64,000 nt of DNA. Origin: Candidatus Altimarinota bacterium (GTDB lineage Bacteria; Patescibacteriota; Gracilibacteria; UBA4473). The notes below the pieces were generated by a model. It worked only from the letters and a program-made list of their open reading frames with translations. It was not told the origin of the DNA and ran no database searches. The position numbers and the translations under genes were made by a program. This document shows positions 4,627 to 40,908 of the stretch, one piece after another; the stretch's first letter is position 1, and every line of letters starts with the position of its first letter. The stretch is taken from assembly GCA_018608565.1 (NCBI GenBank), contig JABAZT010000020.1, forward strand, positions 60,202 through 124,201, written 5' to 3'.

Positions 4627-4707
4627 AAACTTTTAAACCAAGTAAAAAAGAGACATTCCAAATGGTAATGCCTCTTATTCGTATTTCTTTTCCTTCACTT
4701 GTCATCC

Positions 4708-6861: not shown

Positions 6862-6919
6862 AATAGTTTTTTTTATTTGTATTTTTTAAGCCAACAGTAA
6901 AAGTATAATCCAAAGCATC

Positions 6920-9900: not shown

Positions 9901-10738
9901 TAGGATTGATCCTAAAGATCGAAGTAAATCCCTGACCTCCTGGTTGAACCGGATTCACAGGCACATAGCCACCACCTCCACCTCCAGCACTTGAAGTCGC
10001 AGACTCAAACAACGTAGCCCCAGTGAATCCAGACCCACTATCTATAGGAACAAATTGAGGTCCTCCCGTTGGTTGTTGGGTAAACTGTCCATGAGCAGGA
10101 GAGGTTCCATACCCTCCACCATATCCATGTGTAAGATTTACCCCTGGAGTAAATGCCGCGCCCGGAAGTCGTGCTCCCTTAGGAATAAAGGCAATATCAT
10201 TATAGTATCCATTATCTGTATAAATATCTTGTTTTTCTCCCTGCTGGTCCTTATTAGATACGGTTTTCCAGGTATTTTCAGCATTATTAGCATCATCTTT
10301 AGATTGCTGTTCTCGTTGTCCTGCATAGGTTTCGTCCGTCATCACATTTTTTATCACCGTATTTACTATCGCATAGGAAAGCAGGACAATAATAATCCCC
10401 ACAATCGCATAGATAATCATTTTTTGTGCTTTTTCTTTAGCTCCATCGTCACCTCCGGAAATAATAAGCCTAAATCCTGCAAAAATAATAACCGCCACCG
10501 CCAACACCCCAATAAAGGTTAAGACAAAATTAATCACCTTTATAATCGCCTGTCGAAGAGATGTCTCTCCGGCTAATTCTTTTCCAAATTCTCCCTCAGA
10601 AACCTCCATTGTCTCGATCAAAGACCCCGTTGGAATCTTGGCACTTTCGGTAGAAGCCTCTACCTCATCGACTAATCCTCCAAAATAAAATAATGGAGCT
10701 AACAATACAATAAAACTGAAAATTAATTTTCGCATCAA
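6920..10738 (-). CDS. giant surface protein: signal peptide + TrbC/VirB2-like (T4SS-pilin-like) 2-TM hairpin + PKD repeat array
   Basis: 1272 aa. Hairpin 'VINFVLTFIGVLAVAVIIFAGFRLIISGGDDGAKEKAQKMIIYAIVGIIIVLLSYAIVNTV', a Gly-rich linker, then at least 8 PKD-like repeats ('WDFGGE', 'WDFPDG', 'WDFGDGN', 'WDLGDG'). Confidence 0.8.
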   Translation of the reverse strand: MMRKLIFSFIVLLAPLFYFGGLVDEVEASTESAKIPTGSLIETMEVSEGEFGKELAGETSLRQAIIKVINFVLTFIGVLAVAVIIFAGFRLIISGGDDGAKEKAQKMIIYAIVGIIIVLLSYAIVNTVIKNVMTDETYAGQREQQSKDDANNAENTWKTVSNKDQQGEKQDIYTDNGYYNDIAFIPKGARLPGAAFTPGVNLTHGYGGGYGTSPAHGQFTQQPTGGPQFVPIDSGSGFTGATLFESATSSAGGGGGGYVPVNPVQPGGQGFTSIFRINPIVVSGDDVVDYGDGVSVPLETGKKGVLIQFTLPGYVKMDMGDGTSRNLDTSDGSRGDFTHIYGESGKYIIRANSQNVDGGRKTYTKEVIVGALEAVISGVKTQGRVDEPMRFSGNNSRTIVGTIASHEWSCEGGAGCFDPFDSENIRVVFQEPGTYTVRLKVKNSLRIVDEDTITVVIKGNIPVAKFKIRPTFNPLKPAEFVFDANESVNIDGLRENLLYRWDFGGEYVETYSPVVTYEFGTAGRKEVGLQVVQKEQTTVYASEVFDQDMEVVSTLGLNFQIGLDSIKSGDIVYFQGNSPKATEFEWVFPQEDGSIYGPRVRNTFDVAGAFPVTLKVYDQFSGETNELTKIVYVRNEGKPTAIMNITYGDKQILTPYTQINRGDPIQFESKSLDDSGGTDNLRETWLVNGKAVEKFQINQFFQDLGTYHVELIASNRRNANLRDRTSFKVVVNNTPPEIDDVRFYEDSDFGYQRVRVEADARDVDGEIVQYRFEALHNQQIILAQITESPYTYFNLQQLPGVIDYYFRVNVVDNDNAHTSMSSLSSLAVDSGLTNSAPLISIHAVPGNAGTTDTNFNFVAEAQDNDGDHLTFEWDFPDGKRFGKFLNYRFAEPGEYTVALTVTDDIETVTREVNMYITESENYRGTAGTDTNLPPQVAINGILPFHTVEVGTPIRFYSQASDLDGDDLSYRWDFGDGNHALIPHAVHRYGSVGVYDLVLTVSDGLIEISRDQRITIVPEGTLKQEDLKISPQDLAQYEPQPHTMPVWDTRINKFARFNPETGSIDYLDSINSVEEAAISLENPSAPEVLDQADVSISSTFQTNTECTQLVTLKPLADEQLDLLRKKIDTLDYISDKRKSLETERKLLLASYESVQYNCTDNNIVSLKVLLGIDPNIGEFEPVSIAGGSSTTFFLYGEAPVDYPRALDFEWDLGDGRQIYGQNVSFQYEKAGRYRVVLTVSDGVVEVSDSLTITVNHDAVVEDEVPAAEELLAE

Positions 10739-10745
10739 ATAAACA

Positions 10746-12182
10746 TTACGTTATATAATAAGAGGATTCCTGTTTATAAAGACTAGCCCCTCTTTCACCA
10801 GGCTTCGTCCCTCCTTCTCCATCACCTGGATCAACAGCTCGGACAATCACATTCACAATAGCAAACGCTAGGAACACAACCACCAACCCAACTACACACC
10901 AGATAATAATCTTTTTTGATTTTTCAAGCTGACCATCATCACCAAAGTGAAGAATCATCATAACTCCCGCATAAATAATCGCGATAACGGCAACTATAAC
11001 TATAAACGTTAAGAGATACCGAACCCATCCAATAACAAGTCTTTTTAAATTCGTATTAGTTGTAATACCAGCCCCCTTCCCCTTGTTGACCTCTCCCAAT
11101 TTTTCACCAGTCAACTTTCCTCCTTCTTCTAGACCAATTCCACAGAAAACAGTCTGTCCTTCACAATCCTTTTCTTCCGCAGCCTCTGTATCGACTCCTT
11201 TTATCTCTGCCGACTTATCTCTTCCATCCTCACCTTCTTTACGACCCTCCCCATCATCTTCTGATGGAGCGGCTCCTTGTCCCGCCTCATTCTGCGCAGT
11301 TCCTTTTGGTTGATATTGGTCAAAAAAACCACCAGCCGTACTCCCTTGAGGCCCACTACCATCCGGCATATTATTTCCAGTTCCAAGATCTACCCAGTTT
11401 TGAGTTTTTTGAATATGAGTACTACTCCACTCACTCTCACTTACAGAAGATCCATCTGGATTAATTTTTACACTACTACTTCCACTATACTTCAACGCAC
11501 TAGTAGGAGTTACATATCCTCCCTCATTCTCAGTTCCTGATTCATACCCCGTTCCATATTTGACTGGAACTCCATTTTCATACACAAGCTCTTCTGCTTG
11601 TACATACTCCGTTGCAGGCCTAGATCCAGCAATAGACTCTGTCTTAGAATTCGTTTTTACAGTTTCACCAGTAAATCCATCGTAATACTCACTGTCGGTT
11701 GTCTGAGTTCTGATTACATTTCCATTTTCATCCACTCTATAGGTATTATCTATCTGTTGATTCGTACTCGTTTCTTTGGTTGTCGTTGACACCGTTCCTC
11801 CATGTGTCGTCCCAGTAGCACCCTCAGGAAGCGTCGGCAACTGGCTTCTTCTTCTGATTTCCTGATTGTAGGCCTGTAATCGACTATTGATCCCCTCAAG
11901 CTCAGTTTTATATCGAGATTCAGCCTCAGTATTTCCTCGAGTTTGAGCATCACGAAGCAACTGCGTCTTGATCTCTAGTTCACTTTGATCTAGCTTCAAA
12001 AACTGCCCTAACTGAGAGTCAGACCAACTTTGCAGCTCATCAGACTGAGCCAATAGGGTCCCACCCATCAAGAGCACTAACACTAAACCAAGACGTAAAT
12101 ATCGTAATATCATCTCGTGATTATACCACAGATAAAGCTTTTTATCTAGTCTTTCCTCAATAAAATATTTAATCCAAAACAA
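10746..12182 (-). CDS. secreted G/S/T-rich protein with C-terminal TrbC/VirB2-like 2-TM hairpin
   Basis: 478-aa ORF. Likely start is M24 (about 12113), giving signal peptide 'MILRYLRLGLVLVLLMGGTLLAQS'. C-terminal 'VRYLLTFIVIVAVIAIIYAGVMMILHFGDDGQLEKSKKIIIWCVVGLVVVFLAFAIVNVI' is clearly homologous to the hairpin of the next gene. Confidence 0.7.
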   Translation of the reverse strand: MFWIKYFIEERLDKKLYLWYNHEMILRYLRLGLVLVLLMGGTLLAQSDELQSWSDSQLGQFLKLDQSELEIKTQLLRDAQTRGNTEAESRYKTELEGINSRLQAYNQEIRRRSQLPTLPEGATGTTHGGTVSTTTKETSTNQQIDNTYRVDENGNVIRTQTTDSEYYDGFTGETVKTNSKTESIAGSRPATEYVQAEELVYENGVPVKYGTGYESGTENEGGYVTPTSALKYSGSSSVKINPDGSSVSESEWSSTHIQKTQNWVDLGTGNNMPDGSGPQGSTAGGFFDQYQPKGTAQNEAGQGAAPSEDDGEGRKEGEDGRDKSAEIKGVDTEAAEEKDCEGQTVFCGIGLEEGGKLTGEKLGEVNKGKGAGITTNTNLKRLVIGWVRYLLTFIVIVAVIAIIYAGVMMILHFGDDGQLEKSKKIIIWCVVGLVVVFLAFAIVNVIVRAVDPGDGEGGTKPGERGASLYKQESSYYIT

Positions 12183-17765: not shown

Positions 17766-17841
17766 GGGCCGGTAGCTCAGTGGTTAGAGCAGGGCGCTCA
17801 TAACGCCTTTGTCGCTAGTTCAATTCTAGCTCGGCCCACCA
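17766..17841 (+). tRNA. tRNA with CAT anticodon, elongator type (Ile2-lysidine-like or Met), CCA encoded
   Basis: Manual cloverleaf, 76 nt. Acceptor GGGCCGG/TCGGCCC, D arm gctc-agtggtta-gagc, anticodon loop ctCATaa, T arm gctag-ttcaatt-ctagc. G1-C72 pair and no GGG/CCC anticodon stem, so not an initiator. Closely resembles E. coli ileX, including C4-G69 and C5-G68. Confidence 0.9.
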
Positions 17842-19481
17842 CCATCTTCTAAATCAAGGTTCAAAGTCTCATTAATACCTTTAGAATCAGCATAATCGGT
17901 TCTGACTATGTTTTTGAGCTTCCATTCGTCAGGTTTGAACCTCAACCAGAGGGTAGTAACTACTTTTTTCTTCCCAGCTGTATCGTACTCAGTACAAACA
18001 TTGACTCGATCGACAAGCAATTGCATGATCCAACGCTTTTTATCATGATCTAAATTCTTCATAAGTGTTTTTACTTTGTTTTTTGTATCAGTGATTTCCT
18101 TTACGTTAACGTGTAATTCCGAGAGGGTTTCAAGTTCTTTTTCGAGACCTTCTTGATATTCTATTTGTACTTCAATTTCCGTTTCAAGTTTTGGTGCCTG
18201 CCTTTGAAAGACTTCATCACTAATTTTTCCTTCTATCATCTTATTTTCAAGACTACATCGTTTACTTTGTAGATCTCGTAGTTTTTTCTTAGTATTGTCT
18301 AGTTGTTCTTGAAGCGTTCCTGCTTTGCTTTTTTCAATTTGTTTCCGATAATACTCTTCTACAAAAACGGATGGATCATCAAAAGCCTCTGTAATCCTCC
18401 TCCAGACGAAATCTTCTAGCGGCTTACTAGGAATTTCATTTACTTTTTGCTTTACCCCAAGATGAGTGAATGATTGTCTTCTATAGCTAGAACCTCCTTT
18501 GCTTCGCCCTGCTCCTACAAATTTTTGTGGTGGATCATAATCCATGTCATAGAGCTTTCCAGAGAGGAGGTATGACGTACTCTTCCTTCCTCCAAGGTTT
18601 TGCTTTCGTTGTTCTTGTGCAAAGGAAAACAATGTGTCAGAGATAATTTCAGGACATGCTCCGTATTCCCATTCATCCTCTGGAAGTTTATCTTTAGAGT
18701 CTGAATCCGTATAGGAAACAACATACCTTCCTAAATAGTGTGTACATTTGAGGATTGTTTCTATTTTTTCTGCGTCCCAGATCATGTTCTTTTTTGCTCT
18801 GGTGTGTTTTCCAAGAGGAATAGCCTCAGCATTAAGTTCATTCGATATCATACGTTGCCCTTTGCCTTTATAGACATAAGAATTAAAGATTCGCTCAATA
18901 ACCGCTACTTCTTCAGGAATTGGCTCTAATACGCTCCCTTTTCCCAGAGGGCTTGCCACTTTGTCGTATCCATAAGGAATACTGCTTCCAACGTAGTTTC
19001 CTGATTGGGCTGATGCGATTTTTCCTGTTTGTGTTCTACCCTTAATTAATTCTCTCTCAAATTCAGCAAGAGCTCCAAATATTTGGAATATCAACCTTCC
19101 CATTGGACCGTGGAAATCAATGTTTTCTTGAAGAGAAATAAAGCTTGTTTCGTTTTTCTTAAGCTCATCTAAGAACTGGAGAAGATGCCTGAGATTTCGG
19201 CTCATACGATCAATTTTCCATACAAGCACTGCATCTACTTTTCTAGCCTTTACGAGTTCCATCATTTTTTGATAGGCGGGACGATTTAGATCCGATCCAG
19301 AACCAGTATCTTGAAAAACCCATTCGTCTTTTGTAATAAGATTGAGTGCGGGGTTATTTTCAACGTAATCAATCAGCTTATTCTGCTGATCACCAAGACT
19401 GTAACCATCTCGTTGTTGTTCTTGCGTAGAGACTCGTATGTATATCGCTACTCTCCGTTTAGATTCATTATTTGATAACAT
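17826..19481 (-). CDS. large serine recombinase (integrase)
   Basis: 551 aa. N-terminal resolvase domain 'VAIYIRVSTQEQ...', a recombinase domain and a C-terminal coiled coil. The last 5 codons plus the stop overlap the tRNA 3' end by 16 nt. Confidence 0.9.
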   Translation of the reverse strand: MLSNNESKRRVAIYIRVSTQEQQRDGYSLGDQQNKLIDYVENNPALNLITKDEWVFQDTGSGSDLNRPAYQKMMELVKARKVDAVLVWKIDRMSRNLRHLLQFLDELKKNETSFISLQENIDFHGPMGRLIFQIFGALAEFERELIKGRTQTGKIASAQSGNYVGSSIPYGYDKVASPLGKGSVLEPIPEEVAVIERIFNSYVYKGKGQRMISNELNAEAIPLGKHTRAKKNMIWDAEKIETILKCTHYLGRYVVSYTDSDSKDKLPEDEWEYGACPEIISDTLFSFAQEQRKQNLGGRKSTSYLLSGKLYDMDYDPPQKFVGAGRSKGGSSYRRQSFTHLGVKQKVNEIPSKPLEDFVWRRITEAFDDPSVFVEEYYRKQIEKSKAGTLQEQLDNTKKKLRDLQSKRCSLENKMIEGKISDEVFQRQAPKLETEIEVQIEYQEGLEKELETLSELHVNVKEITDTKNKVKTLMKNLDHDKKRWIMQLLVDRVNVCTEYDTAGKKKVVTTLWLRFKPDEWKLKNIVRTDYADSKGINETLNLDLEDGGGPS

Positions 19482-19502
19482 CCAATGAATTATAGGAGAT
19501 TT

Positions 19503-19542
19503 TTTATAAAAATAAACCGCCCTTAAGAAATCTTAAGGACGG
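19503..19542 (-). terminator. rho-independent terminator (minus strand)
   Basis: Hairpin 'ccgcccttaag-aaat-cttaaggacgg' (one mismatch), followed on the minus strand by 'tttattttta'. Confidence 0.6.
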
Positions 19543-19562
19543 CTTTGAAAGACTGTTTAAAA

Positions 19563-19754
19563 CTAGCTTTTACTTGTTTTCTTGGGGAGACTATCAAACA
19601 CCCCACAGTGATCCAAAATATCTGTTATTTGAGAAACAGAAACTGCTTCTTTGTCAGACGAATAGCGCGTGTGAAACTGATAGGTTGTTCCACGGTTGGT
19701 TGTGAAGGACTCTTCACATTTGCCCAGATCAGGTTTGATTGGGACCGATCGCAC
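19563..19754 (-). CDS. small hypothetical protein
   Basis: 63-aa ORF followed directly by the terminator at 19503-19542. No motifs. Confidence 0.25.
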   Translation of the reverse strand: MRSVPIKPDLGKCEESFTTNRGTTYQFHTRYSSDKEAVSVSQITDILDHCGVFDSLPKKTSKS

Positions 19755-20285
19755 TCCAGTATCTTTTTTCTGCTTAGAAATGTGATAGGAGATTAGCGTT
19801 ATTTGGACGTATCAAGATATTATCTATCTTTCAAAATCCATGTTGAAGATCTTACTCTTTTTTTATTAAGATGCAAAGGTACAATACTTTGTCTACTCCG
19901 TCAATTCGTCTACTCTGCGTATTCGTGTAACTTTTTCTTTACCAGAGGGTTGAACTACTCTCTTCCACCCCCTTTAAATAGCTCATATTCTCTCTCTAGA
20001 AGATTTTTAATGTGCTATGGTGGAAAATTATTATTTTATTCAGGGTTTGTATCAAGAGTAGAGGCTAAAGATCGGTTATTGAGATTGCCCTAAGTAGTAT
20101 ATCTAAGTTGTCCCCCCTGCCTTGAACAAGGGGGATTTTTTCCTACTTACCACATTTTTTCCTGAGAGGGGCAGGTGTGCTTCTCTTGTGTGTCTTTACT
20201 GTGACTGTTTTTCGTCCTGGTTTGCCTCCGACTCTTGTCGGTCGGCATTTAGTCTTTGTTGCCATCGTTCTTGGTTTTTAATGAA

Positions 20286-20313
20286 TTAAGAAAAGCCCCT
20301 CAACTGAGGGGCT
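20286..20313 (-). terminator. rho-independent terminator after the YegP-like gene
   Basis: Stem 'agcccctc/gaggggct' with loop 'aact', then a short U-run on the minus strand. Confidence 0.55.
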
Positions 20314-20321
20314 GATTGTTT

Positions 20322-20501
20322 CTACTTTATCTCGTAGATTTTGGCAGAGGAAGCATTTTTTTTGAGTAGAGCAATACCATTTAAGGCATTCTGCTTAGTG
20401 GTATAGCCTTCGCCGCTATCTGCTATTATCTCTCCGTTACCGGCTTTTAAGTGCCACCGGTATTCTTTGGAATTGTCTTTGTATATAGAGAACCTAAACA
20501 T
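20322..20501 (-). CDS. DUF1508 / YegP-like small protein (59 aa, below the ORF-track cutoff)
   Basis: Hand translation gives 'MFRFSIYKDNSKEYRWHLKAGNGEIIADSGEGYTTKQNALNGIALLKKNASSAKIYEIK'. This matches the YegP repeat pattern (F..y.d..g.yRf.LKA.NGE.I..SegY..k..a..GI). Confidence 0.75.
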   Translation of the reverse strand: MFRFSIYKDNSKEYRWHLKAGNGEIIADSGEGYTTKQNALNGIALLKKNASSAKIYEIK

Positions 20502-20828
20502 GATTGAAATTTGTTTCTAAAATATCCTGTTAAAACAGGTAGTTAGCAGGAAGAGAAAAAAGATCCTGCTTTGCGAAGACAAATAAACTGCACCAGGTTT
20601 CTGGTGTTGAAATTTGCTTGCGCTTTCCGCAGAACCTCTTATCGTGAGGGGCGTAGCCGTCCAAAACTACACGAAGAAACTTTTTCTCGGTCACCTGTTC
20701 AAGCAGGCGGGATGAGGTTTCTTTTTAGATGATTCTGATGGTTTTTCGTTTGCTCATACCATAATTATCAGAATCCATTCGACTTTGTCAAACCTTATTA
20801 ACAACTTTCGAATTTCTGTTGAATCTTG

Positions 20829-20856
20829 TTGACAACTTTTGTGTTCAGGATAGGAT
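20829..20856 (+). promoter_or_regulatory. candidate sigma70-type promoter giving a leaderless XRE-ImmA mRNA
   Basis: TTGACA (20829-20834), 16-nt spacer, TAGGAT (20851-20856). The ATG at 20864 lies 7-8 nt downstream. Related half-sites: TTGTCAA (20785), TTAACAACTTT (20798), TTGACAACTTT (20829). Confidence 0.4.
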
Positions 20857-20863
20857 TTAGACA

Positions 20864-21721
20864 ATGGAAGATCGAAAAAAAGAAATCGGTAAAAATATTC
20901 GAAACACTCGAGAACAGTTGGGGCTTTCGCAGAGCCAGCTTGCTGAAAAGGTTGGGAAGAAATCGACAGCATTTATTGCCTACGTAGAAGCAGGAGAGCG
21001 TAATATAAGCACTTTAGATCTACTCACGATCGCACGAGTACTAGAAACAACAGTTTCAGAGTTGGTAGGAGAAGTCGAAACCAGCGATGCAAAAGTATCA
21101 ATGGCTCTTCGATCTGATCTTGGCCTCAATTCTAAAAATCGAGAAAAGGTGATTGGATATTATGAATTTTTACGATCGAAAGAGGACTCTGGGGATAATG
21201 AAAAAGTATCCATCACAGATCCTCGATACAAGGAAGCTGAAGCAAAGGCTCATGAGGTATGGAAGGAATTAGGCGAGTCGGAGGTGCCTACCAATCTACA
21301 GTCGATAGTTAAAAAACTGGGAATTCCTGTAAAAAAAGTGGAAGGAATTGATATTGAAGGACTTGCTTTTTCTTCTCGGGGAGGAGAAGTTTTTATTATG
21401 TTCAATGGGAGCGATCCATTAGCTCGTCGTCGCTTTACCGTGGCTCATGAAATTGGTCATTTTCTCTTGGATCACATTCCTATTGAAGGAGCGACTGAAC
21501 AAATCTCTCAAAACGCACAAGAAAAAGAAGCCAATACTTTTTCTAGCCACCTACTTGTTCCTCGAGCTGATCTTAAAGAATTTGTTAAAAATAAGAATAA
21601 AACACTTGAGGATATTGTTGGTCGCTACAATGTGAGCAAGGAAGTTGCGACTTATGCAGTTTTAAATACCCGAGGGATACTTGATAAACTTGCCCTAGAT
21701 CCTGATTCAGGAGGGTTTTAA
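20864..21721 (+). CDS. XRE-family HTH fused to ImmA/IrrE-type (M78) zinc metallopeptidase
   Basis: 285 aa. N-terminal 'IGKNIRNTREQLGLSQSQLAEKVGKKSTAFIAYVEAGERN' and C-terminal 'VAHEIGHFLLDH' (HExxH). Confidence 0.85.
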   Translation: MEDRKKEIGKNIRNTREQLGLSQSQLAEKVGKKSTAFIAYVEAGERNISTLDLLTIARVLETTVSELVGEVETSDAKVSMALRSDLGLNSKNREKVIGYYEFLRSKEDSGDNEKVSITDPRYKEAEAKAHEVWKELGESEVPTNLQSIVKKLGIPVKKVEGIDIEGLAFSSRGGEVFIMFNGSDPLARRRFTVAHEIGHFLLDHIPIEGATEQISQNAQEKEANTFSSHLLVPRADLKEFVKNKNKTLEDIVGRYNVSKEVATYAVLNTRGILDKLALDPDSGGF

Positions 21722-23858: not shown

Positions 23859-24872
23859 TTAAGTTCGCTCCACAGCCTCTTGCAGATCCTCAATCCTATG
23901 CTGAGTATAAATAGCCGTCGTATTGATATTCGAATGTCCTAGGATTTGAGCTAGTCCAACCATATCATTGGGATTGGCTTGTAAGTATCGATAGGCGAAA
24001 GAATGTCGTAGTTTGTGTGGGCTACAGGGGATTCCTACTTTCTTTGAGTACTTTTCAACGATCTTATTCGTAGCCAGAACCGTCAATATCCCCCTCTGAC
24101 CAATAAAAAGAAATCCCTCGTTCTTTTGAATTTGATTTTCATAGAACTCTAGATGCTGTCTAACGAGAGATCTCAGTCGGTTGTTAAGCGGAACCGTTCG
24201 AGTTTTATTTCCTTTCGTATTTTGGATCAGGAGCGTTCCTTTTCTCTCAGATAGATCAACATGCCTTTTCTCAATAGAAACCACCTCAGAGGCTCGTAAA
24301 CCAGCAGAGAGCATGAGTTCTATCATGCATAGGTCTCGAATATTTCCAATCAGCTCTACCTCCTTTATTAATTTACGAGATTCTTGAGAGGACAGACCTT
24401 TTGGAGATAGGCTCTGTTGAGGAATAGATCGAATTCCATCCGTTGGATCATTTTGAAGGATCTTCTGTTTTAAAGCAGTCTTAAAGAATATTCTCAGGTG
24501 TGTAAGCCTCCGATTAATCGTAGCGGGCAAGAGTTCTTTGTTTTGGCAGGAAGTCCGATATTCGATAATGTCTCGAGGTATAACTCGCTGAAATTCAAAG
24601 CTTTCTCCGTTCATGGACTCATACCAGCTTAAAAAATCTTTCAGATCGTTCGAGAGAGCAATAAAGGTGTTGTCTGAAAAATCCCTCTGCGAAAGACTCT
24701 GTAAGACTGTTTCTAGATCTTTTGATTGAATACACTTGGAGATTTTCTGAGGACTTAGAATTAAGTTCATGAGACAAAGGGTTATTTGATCTATTTTAAA
24801 GCCTTGAAAGGGCTTTTGGCTACCAAATAACGACAAACTATTCTCTTCTCCGAGCGAGTGGGTGCGCCTCAA
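23859..24872 (-). CDS. tyrosine recombinase / integrase (XerC/D-like)
   Basis: 337-aa ORF. 'LSAGLRASEV' (Arg I), 'HKLRHSFA' (HxxR), 'LGHSNINTTAIYTQ' (His and catalytic Tyr). The true start may be the internal M35. Confidence 0.9.
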   Translation of the reverse strand: MRRTHSLGEENSLSLFGSQKPFQGFKIDQITLCLMNLILSPQKISKCIQSKDLETVLQSLSQRDFSDNTFIALSNDLKDFLSWYESMNGESFEFQRVIPRDIIEYRTSCQNKELLPATINRRLTHLRIFFKTALKQKILQNDPTDGIRSIPQQSLSPKGLSSQESRKLIKEVELIGNIRDLCMIELMLSAGLRASEVVSIEKRHVDLSERKGTLLIQNTKGNKTRTVPLNNRLRSLVRQHLEFYENQIQKNEGFLFIGQRGILTVLATNKIVEKYSKKVGIPCSPHKLRHSFAYRYLQANPNDMVGLAQILGHSNINTTAIYTQHRIEDLQEAVERT

Positions 24873-24976: not shown

Positions 24977-25110
24977 CTTTTTTAAGCGAGTTCTTTAATT
25001 TTCATGATCTAAGCTCTATTTTATTTCATTTAAATTGGAAAATAATGTTCAATTTATCCTCTCCCCCCCCATACCCCCAATTTCGACTCGGTATACAATA
25101 TTTTGAAGCA

Positions 25111-25163
25111 TTTCAACGAGTTAACAGAGGACACTATTAAACGAATTAGGAATAAAAACTACT
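25111..25163 (+). repeat. direct repeat, left copy (36 bp perfect, about 52 bp with 3 indels/mismatches)
   Basis: 'tttcaacgagttaacagaggacactattaaacgaat' is identical to 29051-29086. The extension '..agga.t.aaaaactact' is also shared. Confidence 0.85.
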
Positions 25164-25292: not shown

Positions 25293-26216
25293 TCAGCAAT
25301 TTTTAAGTCCACAATCTTCACCGATGACTTCTAATTCGAGGGTTACATGCCCTACGTTATATGATGAGAATACTTTCCTGATACGATCTTTCATCTCTTT
25401 TTGGTTCTCCCATTGTCCTTTCCGAACAACGATGTGACAAGAGCCAATATTATTCGCTCCATCGAGTGACCAGATATGCAAATCATGAACTTCAGAAATT
25501 GCTTTATCGCTCTGTAACCCTCTTATAATTGCTGTATCATCCACATCATTAGGTACTCCTTGCAAGAATAGATGTGTTGCCTTACTCCCGCTCCGAATAC
25601 CATGGAAGAATATCCAGATAGAAATTCCTAAAGCTAGCAAGGGATCGATGATATACCACTCCGTAAAATAAATAATGATACTTCCAACTAAAACCACGCA
25701 CCACCCCAGCAGATCTTCTAGCAAGTGAAGAGAGATAACTTTTTCATTCATCGTTTTTCCCTTTTGGATTTTCCATACAGCAATCCCATTAATAAGGACT
25801 CCGAATACCGCAAAAATAAACATAATTTTACTTTGTACTTCCGCTGGCTCTTGAAGCCTCCCAATCGCTAAGTATCCCATAAAAACTGCTCCTATAATAA
25901 GTATCAAGCTATTAATCAATGCACTGAGGAGAGAGAACCGTTTATATCCATAGCTAAAAGACTTACTCCGCTTTCGTTGTCCTATCTTGGCAAAGAGCCA
26001 GGCGAAGGCTATCGCCAAGGCATCTCCCATGTCATGCAGTGCATCTGAAAGTAGTGCAATGCTGTTACTGAGGATTCCTCCTATCAACTCGATGATAGCA
26101 AAGCTGAAATTGAGACAGAACGCGATTCCAAGATTCTTAGTCTCCTCCGATTCTTGATGATGATTCGAGCAACTACAGGGCATTTTTTTTCTTTTTAAAT
26201 GGACAAGGAAGAGCAA
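25293..26216 (-). CDS. cation diffusion facilitator (CzcD/ZitB-like) metal efflux transporter
   Basis: 307-aa ORF with probable start at 'MPCSCSNHHQESEE' (about 26183). TM helices with 'LLSDALHDMGDA' and the C-terminal 'HDLHIWSL...HVTLELE' CDF signature. Confidence 0.85.
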   Translation of the reverse strand: MLFLVHLKRKKMPCSCSNHHQESEETKNLGIAFCLNFSFAIIELIGGILSNSIALLSDALHDMGDALAIAFAWLFAKIGQRKRSKSFSYGYKRFSLLSALINSLILIIGAVFMGYLAIGRLQEPAEVQSKIMFIFAVFGVLINGIAVWKIQKGKTMNEKVISLHLLEDLLGWCVVLVGSIIIYFTEWYIIDPLLALGISIWIFFHGIRSGSKATHLFLQGVPNDVDDTAIIRGLQSDKAISEVHDLHIWSLDGANNIGSCHIVVRKGQWENQKEMKDRIRKVFSSYNVGHVTLELEVIGEDCGLKNC

Positions 26217-26727
26217 GGAAGATAAGTACGGTTGGAATTAGATTGGCGATAAAATGCCACCAAACCCGAAAATTGGTCAGTGCGACCCTATCATATATAT
26301 CGGTTCCATACGGTTGGAAATATCCAAAGAGAGTACTCATTCCAATAGGTTGGTGTAAATAGTATGCAGTACAAAATAACATTATGTGTTCAAATAGATG
26401 AATAACTTGAATCCAAAATGCCCATTTAGTGTATTTGTTGCGAATAAAAATCTGAAGTCCGATTATTCCTATTAAAAACAAGGTATTTCCAATTAAATGT
26501 AACGACTCAACGCCAAGACGAAAAACACGATGATAATCCTCTTCTCCTGGAGCAATTCGTTCCCCAAGCATCCAAACAAGTTCTGTTGCCCAAGGGGTCA
26601 TATATGGCATATTTCGAAATCCTCGAAACCATTCCCAAAGTTGGATAAAATGTTCTGCAAAATGAAAAAGTTGAAATATGAGCAATGCAGATACAAAACT
26701 CGCCACGATTATTTTTACGGTCTTCAT
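26173..26727 (-). CDS. polytopic membrane protein with paired His motifs
   Basis: 184 aa. 'HFAEH' and 'HLFEH' lie within TM segments. Start overlaps the upstream gene's stop (ATGA). Confidence 0.5.
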   Translation of the reverse strand: MKTVKIIVASFVSALLIFQLFHFAEHFIQLWEWFRGFRNMPYMTPWATELVWMLGERIAPGEEDYHRVFRLGVESLHLIGNTLFLIGIIGLQIFIRNKYTKWAFWIQVIHLFEHIMLFCTAYYLHQPIGMSTLFGYFQPYGTDIYDRVALTNFRVWWHFIANLIPTVLIFLALPCPFKKKKNAL

Positions 26728-27167
26728 CGTGAATTAGAGTTAGGGCTATTAGAGAGGTGAGCCATGAAATCACTCATAAGAACTCCAGACACTGTTTTTT
26801 GATGACTTCCATCTGCTTCAAAAAATATCCCTGTATGCTTGACGGTTACGCCATAGGTTCTTCGTAATTCTAGCTCTGTATCAAAATCGGCTATGAGAAT
26901 TGCTGTGTTTTTTGGCAAAATTTGCTGATTTGAAGTGATTTGTTCAGCAAGACGCTTACATCCAGGACACCAACTTGCTCCTGCGAATACAGCAAATTTA
27001 TTACCTGATTTTTTCAAAGATTCCAACCTGTCGGCAGAATAGTTCTCCGCATATCCATGAGCCTTGCTTTTGATGGCAATTGATGACTGGTTTGATGTTG
27101 AAGTAGTGCTTTCTGTTCCACAGCCAGTAAAGATAAGAACGGTTAAGATTAATAGTAAGTATTTCAT
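26724..27167 (-). CDS. thioredoxin-fold lipoprotein (TlpA-like)
   Basis: 147 aa with lipobox 'LIFTGC' and active site 'WCPGC'. Confidence 0.75.
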   Translation of the reverse strand: MKYLLLILTVLIFTGCGTESTTSTSNQSSIAIKSKAHGYAENYSADRLESLKKSGNKFAVFAGASWCPGCKRLAEQITSNQQILPKNTAILIADFDTELELRRTYGVTVKHTGIFFEADGSHQKTVSGVLMSDFMAHLSNSPNSNSR

Positions 27168-27238
27168 ATAAAAGGTGGTTATAATAGTTAAAAGAATAAG
27201 GGGCAGAAAAAGATTCTGCCCGAGTACATATAGCTATA

Positions 27239-27568
27239 TTAAGATTCTTCCTTGAGGGTGAAGTTATAAATTCCTGTACTAATCACTCCGAAAAGAAAAA
27301 ATAATATAAATACTAGTAAAATTCCAAAGAGATCCATAGAAAAAGGAACATGAGGACTAAATATCGATGAAATATCAAAACCATGTAAAAGTAGGTTTAT
27401 CAGTCCTGTATATGCACGATCAGTCATCATGAGGACAAGAAGAATTGAAAGAATATAAAACAAGCTTCCTGTAGTCCCTAATGCAAAGCCAAACTGAAAA
27501 GAATTAATTTTTTTCATTTTTAATTTAGATGTGAGTAATACTGAAACGCTATTGAAGCATTTGATCAA
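27239..27568 (-). CDS. small membrane protein
   Basis: 109-aa ORF with likely start at M18 (about 27517) and 2-3 TM helices. Confidence 0.4.
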   Translation of the reverse strand: MIKCFNSVSVLLTSKLKMKKINSFQFGFALGTTGSLFYILSILLVLMMTDRAYTGLINLLLHGFDISSIFSPHVPFSMDLFGILLVFILFFLFGVISTGIYNFTLKEES

Positions 27569-28328
27569 TTTGCCCTTTTATCTGTGCAAAAGGGAGTGCG
27601 CCAGGTACGAATGAAATATCACCTGTTTTGTTATTTACGATAAAACTTCCTGGAGTACCAGTTACACCTGCTTTCGCTCCTTCTGCCATATCTTTTTTCA
27701 CTTTGGCAACAAATTTTTCTGATTCATAACACTCATTAAAAGCTCCAACATCCACCCCAATCTGCTGTGCAAGTACTGGAAGTTGGTTTGCATCAAGCCC
27801 CCCGTTGGATTTGGTTGTTTCGTAGACTAGATCTGTATATTCCCAAAATTTATCACCTCCTGCTATATCTCCTACACACTCAACGGCAGCCGCTTCTTGA
27901 GTAGCAAGAGGATCATGAAATCCAAGTGGGAAATGTCGATAGACCCAATTTACTTGTTCTTTATACTCTTCCATAACCTCCTTCATGGTGTTATGAAATC
28001 TCTTACAGTAAGGACACTCAAAATCAGAATATTCAATGATCGTGACAGGTGCATCAGGATTTCCTCTTACATATTCCCCATCCGTTTCTTTTTTAAGGTT
28101 CTTCTGAGCCATCTCTTGTTGGGCTTTTTCTTTCTCGATTTGTGCTTGTTGAGATTTTTTCTGCTGTTCCTGTGCATATTTTTCCATTGCAGCGCCTAGG
28201 TCCTCCTGAGAAAGCTCTCCTCCCTTGCTACCTCCCATCTGAAGTCCTAAAAACACAAGAGATCCAGTGATTAAAAGAGTAGCAAAAATAATGCTGTAAA
28301 TAAGATTGTTGTTTGATTTATCTGACAT
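27549..28328 (-). CDS. membrane-anchored DsbA-family thiol:disulfide oxidoreductase
   Basis: 259 aa. N-terminal TM, Q/E-rich linker, 'FECPYC' CxxC motif and 'GTPGSFI' cis-Pro loop region. Confidence 0.8.
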   Translation of the reverse strand: MSDKSNNNLIYSIIFATLLITGSLVFLGLQMGGSKGGELSQEDLGAAMEKYAQEQQKKSQQAQIEKEKAQQEMAQKNLKKETDGEYVRGNPDAPVTIIEYSDFECPYCKRFHNTMKEVMEEYKEQVNWVYRHFPLGFHDPLATQEAAAVECVGDIAGGDKFWEYTDLVYETTKSNGGLDANQLPVLAQQIGVDVGAFNECYESEKFVAKVKKDMAEGAKAGVTGTPGSFIVNNKTGDISFVPGALPFAQIKGQIDQMLQ

Positions 28329-28382
28329 AGTAAAAATACTTAAAGAAATAATTGACGTTTAACATTGTGTGCGAAAATATTT

Positions 28383-28814
28383 TCAAAGCCTCATTACTAC
28401 GGTTTTTGCAATTATTGAGACCCAAGGATCTGGTCTTTTTATAGTGATGATTATAGGTTTTTCATTCACCAGATAATTTTGATTCTGGTTTTTGATAACA
28501 AGACTCTCTCTTGGCTCTGGTGAATCCTTTAGATACTCTTCTTCTTTATTCTGACTATTCGCAAGATTCATATTCCATGCCTTATCAGTAATCTGGCACA
28601 TACTACACTCTTCAGAATGATGGTGTCCCATCTCGTGACAAGGAGTATCCATCTGATGCGGGATTGCATAACAACTCAAACAACCAAGGGTAAGGAGGTT
28701 TACGAGTAATATGAGAACGGAACTAGCCCAGCGAAATACCTTCATGTACCACCATATTAAGCATGAGAGAAATTGGGGCAAATTATAGCGATCTAAAAGA
28801 ATTATTGTTCTCAA
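28383..28814 (-). CDS. His/Cys-rich putative metal-binding lipoprotein
   Basis: 143-aa ORF with likely start 'MKVFRW' (about 28745). Lipobox-like 'LTLGC' and 'CHEMGHHHSEECSMC'. Confidence 0.45.
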   Translation of the reverse strand: MRTIILLDRYNLPQFLSCLIWWYMKVFRWASSVLILLVNLLTLGCLSCYAIPHQMDTPCHEMGHHHSEECSMCQITDKAWNMNLANSQNKEEEYLKDSPEPRESLVIKNQNQNYLVNEKPIIITIKRPDPWVSIIAKTVVMRL

Positions 28815-29050
28815 GAAAAATAGAATCGCCTTACTAAATAGGTCTCTAGGGAAAGATTAACTATGAAAAACCTTCCCAGAATTCGAGAACGGATTTTTAA
28901 ATCAGAGAGGATAAAGCACTATTTTAACCATTATAGAGTTAAACAGTGAATAAAAAAGCCCAAACAAGCTGTATTAAATCTGTTTTGAAGCAAATTTAAT
29001 GCCCCCCTATACCTAATATAAACGACCCGAAAACAGATGATTTAGGATTA

Positions 29051-29102
29051 TTTCAACGAGTTAACAGAGGACACTATTAAACGAATAGGATTAAAAACTA
29101 CT
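29051..29102 (+). repeat. direct repeat, right copy
   Basis: Identical 36-mer at 29051-29086, with the shared extension to 29102. Ends about 50 nt before the first ATG of the next gene. Confidence 0.85.
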
Positions 29103-29117
29103 TTAATTGTTCTTTCG

Positions 29118-30050
29118 TTGAGAAAAATCAAAAGATATACTAGGTTCTATTATATGAAAGAACTATTTCAAACATACCGACCGGGAAGAGACCGAGCTCA
29201 GATAATATCTCGAGCGGAAGATGTGCTACAAAGCTATCAACGACAAGGTTATAAGCTATCCCTCAGACAGTTGTATTATCAGCTAGTAGCTAAAAATCAC
29301 ATTGAAAACTCTGATCGTTCATACAAAATACTCTCTGAGACGATCATGAGAGCGAGAAATGGAGGTCTAATCGACTGGGACTCCATTGAAGATCGAACTC
29401 GAGGAATACGCCAACCAGCTAAGGTTGACGGATTTTCTCAGGCATTGACCAAGACAATGATGAATTATCGACTCGATAGAATGAAAGGACAAGACTACTA
29501 TTTAGAGGTTTGGATCGAAAAAGATGCTGTATCTAATATTGTCTACCGTGTTACCCAAAAGTATGGGATACCTCTAATGGCTAACAAGGGCTACAGTTCT
29601 GCGAGTGCTATGTATGAAGCCCAACAACGATTCAAGAATAAACTGTCAGATAATCCAGCAGAAAATAGGACTTCTAAGGTTTTATATCTTGGGGATCATG
29701 ATCCATCGGGGATGGATATGTTTCGTGATATTACTCAAAGAAATAGGCTTTTTAACGGTTATACTTTTTTTGAACGATTGGGGCTTAACATGGATCAGAT
29801 AGAGGACTTAAAACCACCAGAAAATCCTGCTAAGCTGAAAGATACTAGAGCAAAAGAGTACATAAAAGAGTTTGGACGATCTAGCTGGGAATTAGATGCC
29901 CTTACCCCAAACTACCTAGAAACACTCTTAGAGAATGCGATTTTACAGCATATAGACATAGGTAAATACAACGGGGTACTTGAAGAAGAAAAACAGGACA
30001 AGGCTCGGATGAGCGAAATAATAAAAAAGAACGAAGAAGAGGCTCTGTAG
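29118..30050 (+). CDS. stand-alone Topo VI-A / Spo11-like protein (5Y-CAP + Toprim), Mini-A-like
   Basis: The track ORF starts at TTG; the first ATG is at 29154 (298 aa). Motifs: 'LSLRQLYYQLV' (R-x-x-Y-Y), 'VWIEKDAV' (Toprim Glu), 'LGDHDPSGMDM' (DxDPxG). Confidence 0.6.
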   Translation: MRKIKRYTRFYYMKELFQTYRPGRDRAQIISRAEDVLQSYQRQGYKLSLRQLYYQLVAKNHIENSDRSYKILSETIMRARNGGLIDWDSIEDRTRGIRQPAKVDGFSQALTKTMMNYRLDRMKGQDYYLEVWIEKDAVSNIVYRVTQKYGIPLMANKGYSSASAMYEAQQRFKNKLSDNPAENRTSKVLYLGDHDPSGMDMFRDITQRNRLFNGYTFFERLGLNMDQIEDLKPPENPAKLKDTRAKEYIKEFGRSSWELDALTPNYLETLLENAILQHIDIGKYNGVLEEEKQDKARMSEIIKKNEEEAL

Positions 30051-30403
30051 GTGAAAGGGGGGGCGATAGTAAGAGCTATCTAAGTCTCTCTTCTATCTCT
30101 TTCTCCATTACTAAGCTCTTTTTTAATATCTATAGCTCCCTTATAAGGCTCTTTGACCTATTGAGGTTCAATTCAAGGGGATGCTAGCACTAAAGAATCA
30201 AGAAAATCCTTATTTTATAAGGACATTCTTTTCAACTACTTTGTATCTACGGATCATCAAATACCGATCACCATGCCACTCTTTTTCTCTCTGCATCTGA
30301 TACTGGGCATGAAAGATGTAGAGGTTCTGTTTACTTGGGGTTGTATTACCACATCGTCATAACCTAGATGAAGTTTTATACTTCGTCTTTTTTATAAAAC
30401 ATC

Positions 30404-34895: not shown

Positions 34896-35023
34896 GACTT
34901 CGTGTTGATCTCGACCTACTCTCCCAGGATAACTCCAAGTACCATCGGCGCTAGCGGGCTTAACTTCTGTGTTCGGGATGAGAACAGGTGTACCCCCACT
35001 GCTACTAAGATCAACACGAAGCC
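34896..35023 (-). rRNA. rrf: 5S rRNA (ends approximate; includes an extended terminal helix)
   Basis: The reverse complement contains '...ccgaacacagaagttaagcccgctagcgccgatggtacttgg...cctgggagagtaggtcg...'. Terminal helix is 'cttcgtgttgatc/gatcaacacgaag'. Confidence 0.85.
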
Positions 35024-35171
35024 TTTTTAGACGTTCGGTGACATAAGGTTCATGTAAACAACCATCTTTTTTTATCTCTCAAAGAGAGATGAAGTAAAGA
35101 ATATAAAAACTTGCAAAGATATCGTTTTCTTAAGCTTGCTCTTCCAGCAAAATATTAAGCATGAAAGAAAA

Positions 35172-38056
<2,885 letters not shown>

Positions 38057-38802: not shown

Positions 38803-40908
38803 CTAAGCATTTCTTCGACTCCCAATCCCAATCATCAAAAACAATCCTCCTATAACAGCAATAACAATAGCCCAAACATTACTTCCCCCCGTCGGCTCCA
38901 GATCATCAGCTGCAGGATAAAGATCTAACGTAGTAGCATCCACCAGATTACTCGGAACACTCGTAAGATCATCGGTATCCACCGCAATCACTCGAAAGTA
39001 ATAATGAGTCCCCTCCGTCAGCCCATCTATATACCATTGCGTTCTATTATCCGGTAAATCATTAAATCTATCCAAATTCGCGGCATTCTCGCCATATTCA
39101 ATACGATAGTGATCGATCCCCTTATCATCCGTACTAGGAGACCAGGTTAGCGTAACCTTATGCTCCGCCACAGACTTCACCGACAGATTAACCACCGCCG
39201 TAGGAGCCAATAACCCATCTCCAATTCCATCATCCACAGAATCTATAGGCTGAAGCTCTCCATCACCACCAGTCCCGCCATCAATAACAATTTCTGTTAA
39301 TGGTTTACAAACAGTAATTTTAGCGGCATTTGGCTCATCCAACTCATTCCCAAGCGTATCAGCAATTTTACATCCGATAATATACTCTCCACACTCCTCA
39401 GGCGCCTGCATGATCGTGACAAACTTATCACCAGAGGCCGATAAATCATACCGTACGTCCTCCAACACACACTGAGCACTAGAGAGCGGCTCACTTGCCT
39501 TAATAGAAAGCTCAAAATCTTGGTTTGGATCATAAGGCGGCGGCGGCGTAAGCTGAACCGCAATAACTCGAGGCGGAAGGCGATCTATCGTAATAATAAC
39601 CTCCTGACTATTTACCGTATCACCAGTATCAAAAGCCTGAAACTGATGCACCCCATTTGCCAACGCAGGAGTCTGATACACAAAATTACCGCTCTCATCC
39701 ACCGGCAAATCATCCACCAACAACGTCTGTCCATCAACAATTCTAAGTGTCTCTACTCCATAAGCTTTTCCCGTAATAGAAACTCGAGCTGATCGATACG
39801 TCCCAGGAGTTGGAGTTAGTATTTCAATACTCGGTCCTTCACCATTTCCGCTATTTCCACCTTCTCCCACTACCTGAAAATCAGTCTCTCCCGTAATCCG
39901 AAAATCCGATAGATCAATAACTGTAAGACTATGCTTCCCTGGAGTATTAAACGTAAACGCCAAAGAAAACTGATGCGTCCCTTGATCCTGTTCATCATAC
40001 CGATAATCCGCTGGCAACTGCCCCTTCGAGTCAGTTGAAGTAAATCTAACATTTCCAAAATAATTAGGAACCACATTCCCATCCAGATCAATCGCCTTTA
40101 CCGTAAAAGTATAGGTTTCCCCTGCCTTCAATGGACCTGCTGGTTTTTCAAACTCAAAACGAGCAATTGCATCACTCTCTGTATCATCAAACAACTGCGC
40201 CTTGAGAAATCGCCCCAACCCAAGATCATCATCCGCACCTACCGAATCAAGATCTGAATCCGAAAGGTAAAATACAAGCTCTGGTTTTTCAAATACAACA
40301 ACGTCGTCCACCAACGCCGTCAATGTACTAATACCTGGAGTAGCACTTATCACCTGCCCTAAAGCAATACCATTTTCATCAGACACCAAATCATGCGTCA
40401 CCACATCATCATTTCGAGAAGAAATAATCTGCACAGAAGCACCAGAAACCGAATTCCCGAACCCATCTTGTAGACGCACTCTAAAAACCGCCACACTCTC
40501 TCCATCCGCTGGGGCCGTAGCATCCACCAACTCTATAGCCGAACGATACGATGACACCCCTCCAGAAACAACCTCAAACGGATATACCGCTACATCATTA
40601 GCTCGCAAGTCTCGAGTCACATTGAGCCTATAATTACCTATGTATTTTAGATGCGCCCCATATAATTCCCCTCTATACTGCCCCCACTCATCCGATTTAG
40701 CTGAAAACTTGATATGACTTCCATCTGGACGAATCAGATCAAAACCAAGCGATTCATCAGACAATAATCCCGAAACAGAAAAACCAGCCGCCTCCCCTGA
40801 CATAACGGTATCAGGACCTGATACATAAAAATCACTCGCAACCACAACCCCAAACAGAAAGGGAAGCAACAATACAGACAAGGAAATCTTTCTAAGTAAA
40901 TCAAACAT
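38803..40908 (-). CDS. cell-surface protein with Ig-like (Big/invasin-type) domains, FN3 domain and C-terminal membrane anchor
   Basis: 701 aa. Signal peptide, FN3 'LTWSPSTDDKGIDHYRIEYG...THYYFRVIAVD', C-terminal 'LEPTGGSNVWAIVIAVIGGLFLMIGIGSRRNA'. Confidence 0.7.
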   Translation of the reverse strand: MFDLLRKISLSVLLLPFLFGVVVASDFYVSGPDTVMSGEAAGFSVSGLLSDESLGFDLIRPDGSHIKFSAKSDEWGQYRGELYGAHLKYIGNYRLNVTRDLRANDVAVYPFEVVSGGVSSYRSAIELVDATAPADGESVAVFRVRLQDGFGNSVSGASVQIISSRNDDVVTHDLVSDENGIALGQVISATPGISTLTALVDDVVVFEKPELVFYLSDSDLDSVGADDDLGLGRFLKAQLFDDTESDAIARFEFEKPAGPLKAGETYTFTVKAIDLDGNVVPNYFGNVRFTSTDSKGQLPADYRYDEQDQGTHQFSLAFTFNTPGKHSLTVIDLSDFRITGETDFQVVGEGGNSGNGEGPSIEILTPTPGTYRSARVSITGKAYGVETLRIVDGQTLLVDDLPVDESGNFVYQTPALANGVHQFQAFDTGDTVNSQEVIITIDRLPPRVIAVQLTPPPPYDPNQDFELSIKASEPLSSAQCVLEDVRYDLSASGDKFVTIMQAPEECGEYIIGCKIADTLGNELDEPNAAKITVCKPLTEIVIDGGTGGDGELQPIDSVDDGIGDGLLAPTAVVNLSVKSVAEHKVTLTWSPSTDDKGIDHYRIEYGENAANLDRFNDLPDNRTQWYIDGLTEGTHYYFRVIAVDTDDLTSVPSNLVDATTLDLYPAADDLEPTGGSNVWAIVIAVIGGLFLMIGIGSRRNA

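Follow-up and report, generated by a model that had tools for sequence, protein, structure and literature searches.

Stand-alone homologues of the type IIB DNA topoisomerase A subunit were defined as Mini-A by Takahashi et al. (2019/2020; PMC7671362). Proteins of this family are marked by an RxxY/FY motif, a Toprim glutamate, a DxDxxG motif and, towards the C-terminus, a T2BI box that reads xWELDAL; a B subunit is not found in their vicinity, and the genes belong to viruses and proviruses (PMC7671362). The phylogeny and modelling reported in the same study agree with a kinship between Mini-A and Topo VI-A. In the present study, the gene within an open reading frame (ORF) at 29118..30050 (+) was investigated in a 64,000 nt stretch of contig JABAZT010000020.1 from a Candidatus Altimarinota bacterium (assembly GCA_018608565.1, positions 60,202 to 124,201), the whole of which is referred to here as the window. 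Based on its sequence, this gene is almost certainly a member of Mini-A, as had been proposed in the first-pass annotation, where the product was described as a stand-alone, Mini-A-type protein resembling Topo VI-A and Spo11.

Membership of the family is considered secure because of a match to phrog_6247, the presence of all four of the published signatures, and the phage homologues that are labelled as DNA topoisomerases. The PHROG match, to a family annotated as 'DNA topoisomerase', covers the full length of the window protein (residues 2-295, E=3.5e-89). Homologues were found by tblastn in 84 phage records at 37-44 % identity, with hosts that include Flavobacterium, Listeria, Xylella, Pseudomonas, Salmonella, Roseobacter, and Microbacterium, and the RefSeq label for many of these is likewise 'DNA topoisomerase'. 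Within a set of 5.8 billion proteins, 7,997 of the 8,000 scored candidates match at E<=1e-3, and when a profile was run against 1.84 billion cluster representatives (50 % identity), 12,558 matched at E<=1e-3, 3,178 of them even at E<=1e-30. The window protein is its own representative at 50 % identity, its best relatives in these searches being 49-51 % identical. It is a divergent but typical Mini-A, from a very abundant family first described in 2019, and there is no indication of a new kind of system.

The ORF is the only one at this location and, in the ORF list, is counted as 310 amino acids from a TTG codon. All 37 of the aligned homologues start at the residue that matches an internal ATG at 29154 (MKELFQ...), therefore the product is likely to be 298 amino acids from this ATG and the TTG start is disfavoured, there being no support from homologues for the 12 extra N-terminal residues. 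A product of about 300 amino acids with three family motifs in the right order had been described previously, and this description holds, with the strings LSLRQLYYQLV, VWIEKDAV, and LGDHDPSGMDM all present in the translation in this order. The gene is intact, being full length and retaining all 54 of the columns that are invariant across a 38-sequence alignment. A chance ORF is rejected on the strength of the phrog_6247 match (E=3.5e-89) and the thousands of database homologues.

Conservation of individual residues was counted in an alignment of 192 Mini-A sequences, 80 of which had been fetched by peptide patterns containing TLRQLYYQ and NPAK. R38, Y42, E122, D181, D183, G186, E246, and D248 are identical in all of the sequences (192/192), although these counts are partly biased by the pattern-based retrieval of the 80. 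The putative catalytic tyrosine, glutamate, and aspartates (Y42, E122, D181, and D183), for which conservation among homologues had been anticipated, are all amongst them. In the structure model, Y42 is within a predicted helix (residues 37-46) of the N-terminal, 5Y-CAP-like helical part, and, within a unit of three helices, the second one bears the tyrosines. The positions of these motifs, and of the other features discussed below, are given in Table 1.

Additional sequences were seen in some homologues. Three of these (P0294, P0348, and P0336) have Hint/LAGLIDADG inteins inside Mini-A. In P0294 the intein is one residue before the Toprim glutamate (ELW-intein-CEKDA), P0348 is interrupted at approximately the same profile position, and in P0336 the intein is within the NPxK-SDSR motif. 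Inteins placed at the Toprim glutamate and at the NPAK motif follow the usual pattern of insertion at functionally critical sites of DNA-metabolism enzymes. In another homologue (P0278), a DUF1643 domain is fused at the N-terminus of Mini-A, and several further homologues, of 400-490 amino acids, have extensions with no Pfam match.

The deeper relationship to Topo VI-A and Spo11 was assessed with hhalign against a comparison set of 123 Top6A/Spo11 sequences, made from PDB alignments and 120 full-length Top6A proteins, using reversed alignments as controls. The 192 Mini-A sequences matched this set at E=6.2e-5 (probability 65 %), compared with E=0.4-0.7 for the reversed alignments. With the Toprim (C-terminal) half alone, the match is at E=6.7e-5 (controls 0.39-0.7), and homology of this domain with Top6A is reproduced at the level of sequence profiles. 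A relaxed alignment (mact 0.1) extends colinearly over 234 columns, beginning at RxxYY and reaching the C-terminal region, and pairs LTLRQLYY with aTkREaYY, LGDHDPSG with FTDgDPYG, and NPAK..D.R with hPLK..D..R. The Toprim glutamate is paired with the Top6A glutamate only when a four-sequence Top6A alignment is used (E=0.005), and is a few columns out of register in the 123-sequence alignment. Because R38 and Y42 align to REAYY, at residues ~99-103 of the Methanocaldococcus Top6A, about 60 N-terminal residues are absent from the window protein, in agreement with the earlier remark that it is shorter than canonical Topo VI-A. When 38 members of the family were scanned singly against Pfam, all of the matches were below threshold, to DUF2399 in 7/38, JetD_C in 5/38, TP6A_N in 5/38 (best 0.043), and TOP6A-Spo11_Toprim in 3/38 (best 0.0067).

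A number of results weigh against the relationship to Topo VI-A. The N-terminal (5Y-CAP) half alone matches Top6A weakly, at E=0.066 (control 0.44), although LTLRQLYY and aTkREaYY are still paired. The window protein has no match in Pfam, NCBIfam, or PADLOC, even at E<=10, and the 38-sequence Mini-A profile, searched by sequence against PDB chains, likewise found nothing at E<=10. The AlphaFold2 model of the window protein is confident (predicted local distance difference test score 90.8, predicted template modelling score 0.84), yet with this model a Foldseek search of the PDB returned nothing at E<=1e-3 and no Top6A/Spo11 chain (1D3Y, 2Q2E, 2ZBK, 8URQ) among the 50 matches listed. These listed matches are generic Rossmann-like or weak, the sole recognisable Toprim protein being RecR at rank 34. 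In the viral structure library BFVD, Foldseek found a single weak and unnamed match (E=4.4e-4), and none that is topoisomerase-like. The 5Y-CAP assignment can be inferred from motif position, from colinearity, and from the published analysis (PMC7671362), and overall the link to Topo VI-A is only partly reproduced. Of the similarity to 5Y-CAP and Toprim families predicted in the first-pass annotation, the Toprim half stands on the hhalign comparison, whereas against Pfam the window protein is without a match and its homologues reach TP6A_N, TOP6A-Spo11_Toprim, DUF2399, and JetD_C only below threshold; similarity at the level of structure was not recovered by Foldseek.

Comparisons with described systems show the window protein to share with Mini-A a length of about 300 amino acids, the RxxYY motif, the Toprim glutamate, DxDxxG, and xWELDAL, as well as the lack of an N-terminal Top6B-binding part and of a nearby B subunit. 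It departs from them in its setting, since the insert of 12.4 kb in which the window copy lies has no virion genes, and the family was described as viral or proviral. Topo VI-A and Spo11 have the same order of motifs, RxxYY being followed by an acidic Toprim residue, then by DxDPxG, and finally by a C-terminal box close to the tyrosine. Unlike these proteins, the window protein is ~60-70 residues shorter at the N-terminus, has no Top6B/GHKL partner, falls below the Pfam thresholds, has no Foldseek match to them, and has the box WELDAL in place of the form seen in Topo VI. Topoisomerase VIII, a plasmid-borne type IIB enzyme in which B and A are fused, is similarly borne by mobile elements, and its A-type core is also without the N-terminal 5Y-CAP part; however, it has a Bergerat-fold ATPase, a transducer, and the box RVELNAM (PMC7671362), and none of these is present in the window protein. 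Topoisomerase VIII is therefore rejected as an identity for this protein of 298 amino acids, which has no ATPase region and has the box WELDAL. In JetD of the Wadjet system and other DUF2399 proteins, the Toprim domain is like that of Topo VI-A and follows a CAP-like N-terminal part, and there is no ATPase domain of their own, as in Mini-A. In contrast to these, the tyrosine motif of Mini-A is invariant, there is no PADLOC match, there are no JetABC neighbours, and the genes are in phage early regions.

No GHKL domain was found in the ORFs of the island (the insert that carries the gene) of at least ~140 amino acids, nor in ten other large ORFs of the window that were tested. A Top6B hidden Markov model, built from two archaeal top6B genes that are directly upstream of top6A, as is the case at the control archaeal top6A loci, found nothing at E<=10 in 290 ORFs of the window or in 9,684 ORFs around the homologues. 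Four large ORFs outside the island, of 611-901 amino acids (49527-51362, 54231-56414, 57360-59882, and 60323-63028), have no Pfam match at E<=1e-5 and, as there is no Pfam match at all there, the absence of GHKL is not proven for these four. The earlier observation that the window has no GHKL partner thus holds as far as the ORFs that were tested with the Pfam scans and the Top6B model.

The neighbourhoods of the homologues were compared at 75 genomic loci, which come from Nitrososphaerota archaea as well as from a broad range of bacterial phyla. No conserved partner of Mini-A emerged from blastp clustering of 1,734 ORFs, taken from about 80 loci, or from PHROG and Pfam scans of 144 immediate neighbours. 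Genes that recur within 10 kb encode tyrosine integrases (17 loci), XRE regulators (11), a DnaG-type primase of ~1,000 amino acids (7), superfamily 2 (SF2) helicases (6), SNF2 helicases (6), ParM-like proteins (6), large serine recombinases (6), and DNA methylases (5). Annotated phages have the Mini-A gene in early or replication regions, and the two closest relatives of the window protein, at 51-52 % identity, are on phage contigs with terminase, portal, and tape-measure genes. At four loci from metagenome-assembled genomes of Nitrososphaerota (L012, L018, L027, and L080), an actin-like ParM/ALP_N partition gene adjoins Mini-A. Because this gene is directly beside Mini-A, these loci suggest that episomal, plasmid-like elements in ammonia-oxidising archaea carry Mini-A.

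In the window, Mini-A is the last gene of an insert of roughly 12.4 kb next to tRNA-Met (Table 1). At the left of the insert, the stop-proximal end of the serine recombinase gene runs into tRNA-Met, sharing its last 16 nt, and the insert appears to supply the 3′ end of the tRNA. The ~1.4 kb between this gene and the XRE/M78 regulator (19482-20863) has only short ORFs of <100 amino acids, which may be small regulators or decayed genes. Two secreted or membrane proteins of unassigned family are encoded between the regulator and the tyrosine recombinase. The direct repeat has a 35-nt identical core, with ~91 % identity over 63-64 nt and looser similarity over ~100 nt; there are two copies in the window and none in 100 shuffles, and its 30-nt core was not found in the metagenome contigs searched. 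These copies bracket a 3.9-kb metal-efflux and thiol-redox block, between the tyrosine recombinase gene and Mini-A, which looks like a cassette inserted by site-specific recombination.

Beyond Mini-A there is a DUF218 gene, followed by topA and a 23S-5S rRNA pair. The right border of the insert may be marked by the tRNA-Met-like stretch after Mini-A, for which the local alignment to tRNA-Met scores 14, a value also reached by the highest-scoring of 200 shuffles (their mean being 9.5); as a decayed border this stretch is suggestive only. No long direct repeat matching the tRNA is present at the island borders, as is expected for a serine integrase, and L090, a related contig, extends no further than the rRNA operon and so stops short of the island. 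A scan of the island ORFs found no virion, packaging, or lysis genes (capsid, portal, terminase, or tail) in the insert. The GC skew is flat from 17 to 30 kb and strongly negative elsewhere in the window, which is partly because of mixed gene orientation. Upstream of Mini-A there is no significant DNA structure (z=-0.84), with short inverted repeats only, and matches to promoters and terminators are at shuffle level. The context is that of a mobile element, not demonstrably viral. The placement in an island beside recombinases and repeats, as noted in the first-pass annotation, is real in so far as it concerns the two recombinases and the direct repeat, whereas the right border is only suggested.

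Table 1. Features of the Mini-A gene and of the insert at tRNA-Met, in window coordinates
Feature	Position	Strand	Remarks
Mini-A coding sequence, probably 298 aa (amino acids) + TAG stop	29154..30050	+	ORF list, PHROG match, homologue alignment
RxxYY motif, R38-Q-L-Y41-Y42	29265..29279	+	Counterpart in Top6A is R-E-A-Y-Y; putative catalytic tyrosine, Y42
VWIEKDAV, first Toprim strand	29508..29531	+	E122 (29517-29519) aligns to the IETS Glu of Top6A
DxDxxG motif, D181-H-D183-P-S-G186, predicted Toprim metal-binding motif	29694..29711	+	Aligns to DGDPYG of Top6A
P-E-N-P-A-K-L-K-D-T-R, family-invariant	29817..29849	+	N224, K227, D230, R232; aligns to hPLK..D..R of Top6A
S-W-E-L-D-A-L, T2BI box (xWELDAL form defining Mini-A)	29883..29903	+	Residues 244-250
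tRNA-Met (CAT), probable integration target	17766..17841	+	
Large serine recombinase, probable left border of insert	17826..19481	-	3′ end overlaps the 3′ end of tRNA-Met
XRE helix-turn-helix + M78/ImmA-type metalloprotease fusion	20864..21721	+	Regulator typical of temperate elements
Tyrosine recombinase (Phage_integrase)	23859..24872	-	Start codon 228 nt from left repeat copy
Direct repeat, left copy	25100..25163	.	Looser similarity from ~25061
Cargo block: CDF cation-efflux transporter, DUF6008 membrane protein, thioredoxin-like lipoprotein, DsbA-like, two small ORFs	25293..28814	-	
Direct repeat, right copy	29040..29102	.	Ends 15 nt before TTG and 51 nt before ATG; looser similarity from ~29001
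tRNA-Met-like stretch (anticodon-loop-to-T-arm, 3′ half)	30139..30177	+	89 nt after Mini-A stop

Other features of the window lie outside of the insert. The 23S and 5S rRNA genes (34903-38051, -) have no adjacent 16S gene and appear to be unlinked, because the next gene upstream of the 23S (38803-40908, -) is protein-coding. The latter encodes a 701-aa Ig/fn3 surface protein, for which the only named homologues are from 'Candidatus Gracilibacteria' (41-52 % identity), tentatively placing the probable host among Gracilibacteria-like bacteria. Each of six window proteins that were tested is the only member of its cluster at 90 % identity. As the ORFs of the window are long under the standard code, UGA is not a sense codon here. 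A run of large surface-type proteins is encoded at 2080-12182, including one with SLH and VWA domains (848 aa), one with five PKD domains (717 aa), and a 1,272-aa ORF; the same run includes a 478-aa protein with a T4SS-pilin-like C-terminus.

With regard to function, the reading that is favoured, with moderate confidence, is that of an intact Mini-A carrying out tyrosine- and Mg2+-dependent cleavage and religation on the DNA of a mobile element. Judged on its own, tyrosine/Mg2+ cleavage of DNA by Mini-A is considered slightly to the probable side of even. From the pattern of conservation in the family and the chemistry of Topo VI and Spo11, the protein would act as a homodimer, in which Y42 of each protomer would attack one DNA strand and Mg2+ would be held by E122, D181, and D183. 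The product would be a reversible break, linked through a 5′-phosphotyrosyl bond, that could be resealed. Because there is no ATPase gate, such activity would be ATP-independent cleavage and religation, or nicking, and not full strand passage.

The role would then be the processing of the element's own DNA in an early or replication programme, through initiation, the relief of topological stress, or resolution. Such a role in replication or processing of element DNA is put forward tentatively, with less than even confidence, because, in phages and prophages, the homologues have integrases, repressors, primases, helicases, and partition genes for neighbours. Replication of the element is also the role most often proposed for Mini-A in the literature up to 2026. 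Besides the negative family, profile, and structure searches, the weak match of the N-terminal half, and the partial bias in the invariance counts, it counts against the favoured reading that many of the Mini-A phages also carry full replication modules, therefore Mini-A is not a universal initiator. In the window, recombinases, a regulator, and cargo are present but virion genes are not, therefore either the insert is part of a non-viral integrative element or Mini-A is a surviving gene of a reduced prophage.

The latter bears on the status of the window copy, which could be a leftover of a decayed prophage, intact but without a role for the insert or the host. This is possible, although it is not the expected case. 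Decay would fit an insert that has no virion, packaging, or lysis genes when the closest relatives are in complete phage contigs, as well as the insertion of the 3.9-kb repeat-flanked cargo directly upstream of Mini-A and the ~1.4 kb (19.5-20.9 kb) without a long ORF. It is less readily reconciled with an ORF that is full length and keeps all 54 invariant columns, or with the two recombinases and the XRE/M78 regulator, which are also intact.

It is rather unlikely that Mini-A is the replication initiator of the element, acting as a site-specific nickase that becomes 5′-linked through Y42 and primes rolling-circle or similar replication. DnaB, a primase-helicase, or a DNA polymerase is also present in many carriers, and no conserved hairpin or iteron-like origin was seen beside the gene (fold z=-0.84; short inverted repeats only). 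An initiator or nickase role has nevertheless been proposed for Mini-A in skuldviruses, which, according to the literature, encode no other candidate replication protein. Likewise, Mini-A is the only DNA-metabolism gene in this insert besides the two recombinases, and the homologues are in early or replication modules. A more far-reaching proposal, and a speculative one with little probability attached to it, is that Mini-A would be more than an accessory gene of phages and would here serve as the only enzyme that processes DNA for a small, non-viral integrative element, the host being a bacterium of the candidate phyla radiation (CPR) type; it would break and rejoin DNA in an ATP-independent, tyrosine-linked manner and so start or resolve replication of the excised circle. 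If true, mobile elements would have a new class of replication initiator, one with its origin in the Spo11/Topo VI-A fold.

Mini-A might instead cut DNA by hydrolysis, as a Toprim nuclease of the JetD/DUF2399 kind with a use in defence or in competition among elements, the tyrosine then serving in DNA binding and not in catalysis. Sub-threshold matches to DUF2399 (7/38) and JetD_C (5/38) are as frequent as those to TP6A_N, and the protein stands alone without an ATPase; this reading is nonetheless very doubtful. JetABC, SMC, or other defence partners do not recur among the neighbours, and the gene is in phage early operons, not in host defence islands. The invariance of R38 and Y42 (192/192) fits transesterification, and JetD is not known to have a catalytic tyrosine. 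With no PADLOC match and no Wadjet-like neighbours, an identity as JetD/Wadjet is rejected, and the suggestion of a defence nuclease made in the first-pass annotation has found no support. Finally, a motif-level coincidence, in which Mini-A would be a Toprim protein unrelated to Topo VI-A, is highly improbable, since the negative Foldseek and PDB profile searches and the N-terminal half at E=0.066 that speak for it are outweighed by the Toprim half (E=6.7e-5 vs controls of 0.4-0.7), the colinear relaxed alignment from RxxYY to the C-terminal region, the independent weak Pfam matches that converge on both Topo VI-A domains, and the published phylogeny and modelling, which agree with Topo VI-A kinship (PMC7671362).

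The window copy itself adds little to the understanding of Mini-A, and its only special points are the lack of virion genes, a probable CPR host, and the repeat-flanked cargo just upstream. Cultivable phages with Mini-A, such as Xylella phage Sano, Pseudomonas phage NP1, Salmonella phage BP12C, and Listeria phage LWP01, are far better experimental entry points. Among the families that have the Spo11/Topo VI-A cleavage core but no assigned activity, Mini-A is one of the largest, and its function would bear on the origin of type IIB topoisomerases and Spo11, as well as on the handling of DNA by phages.

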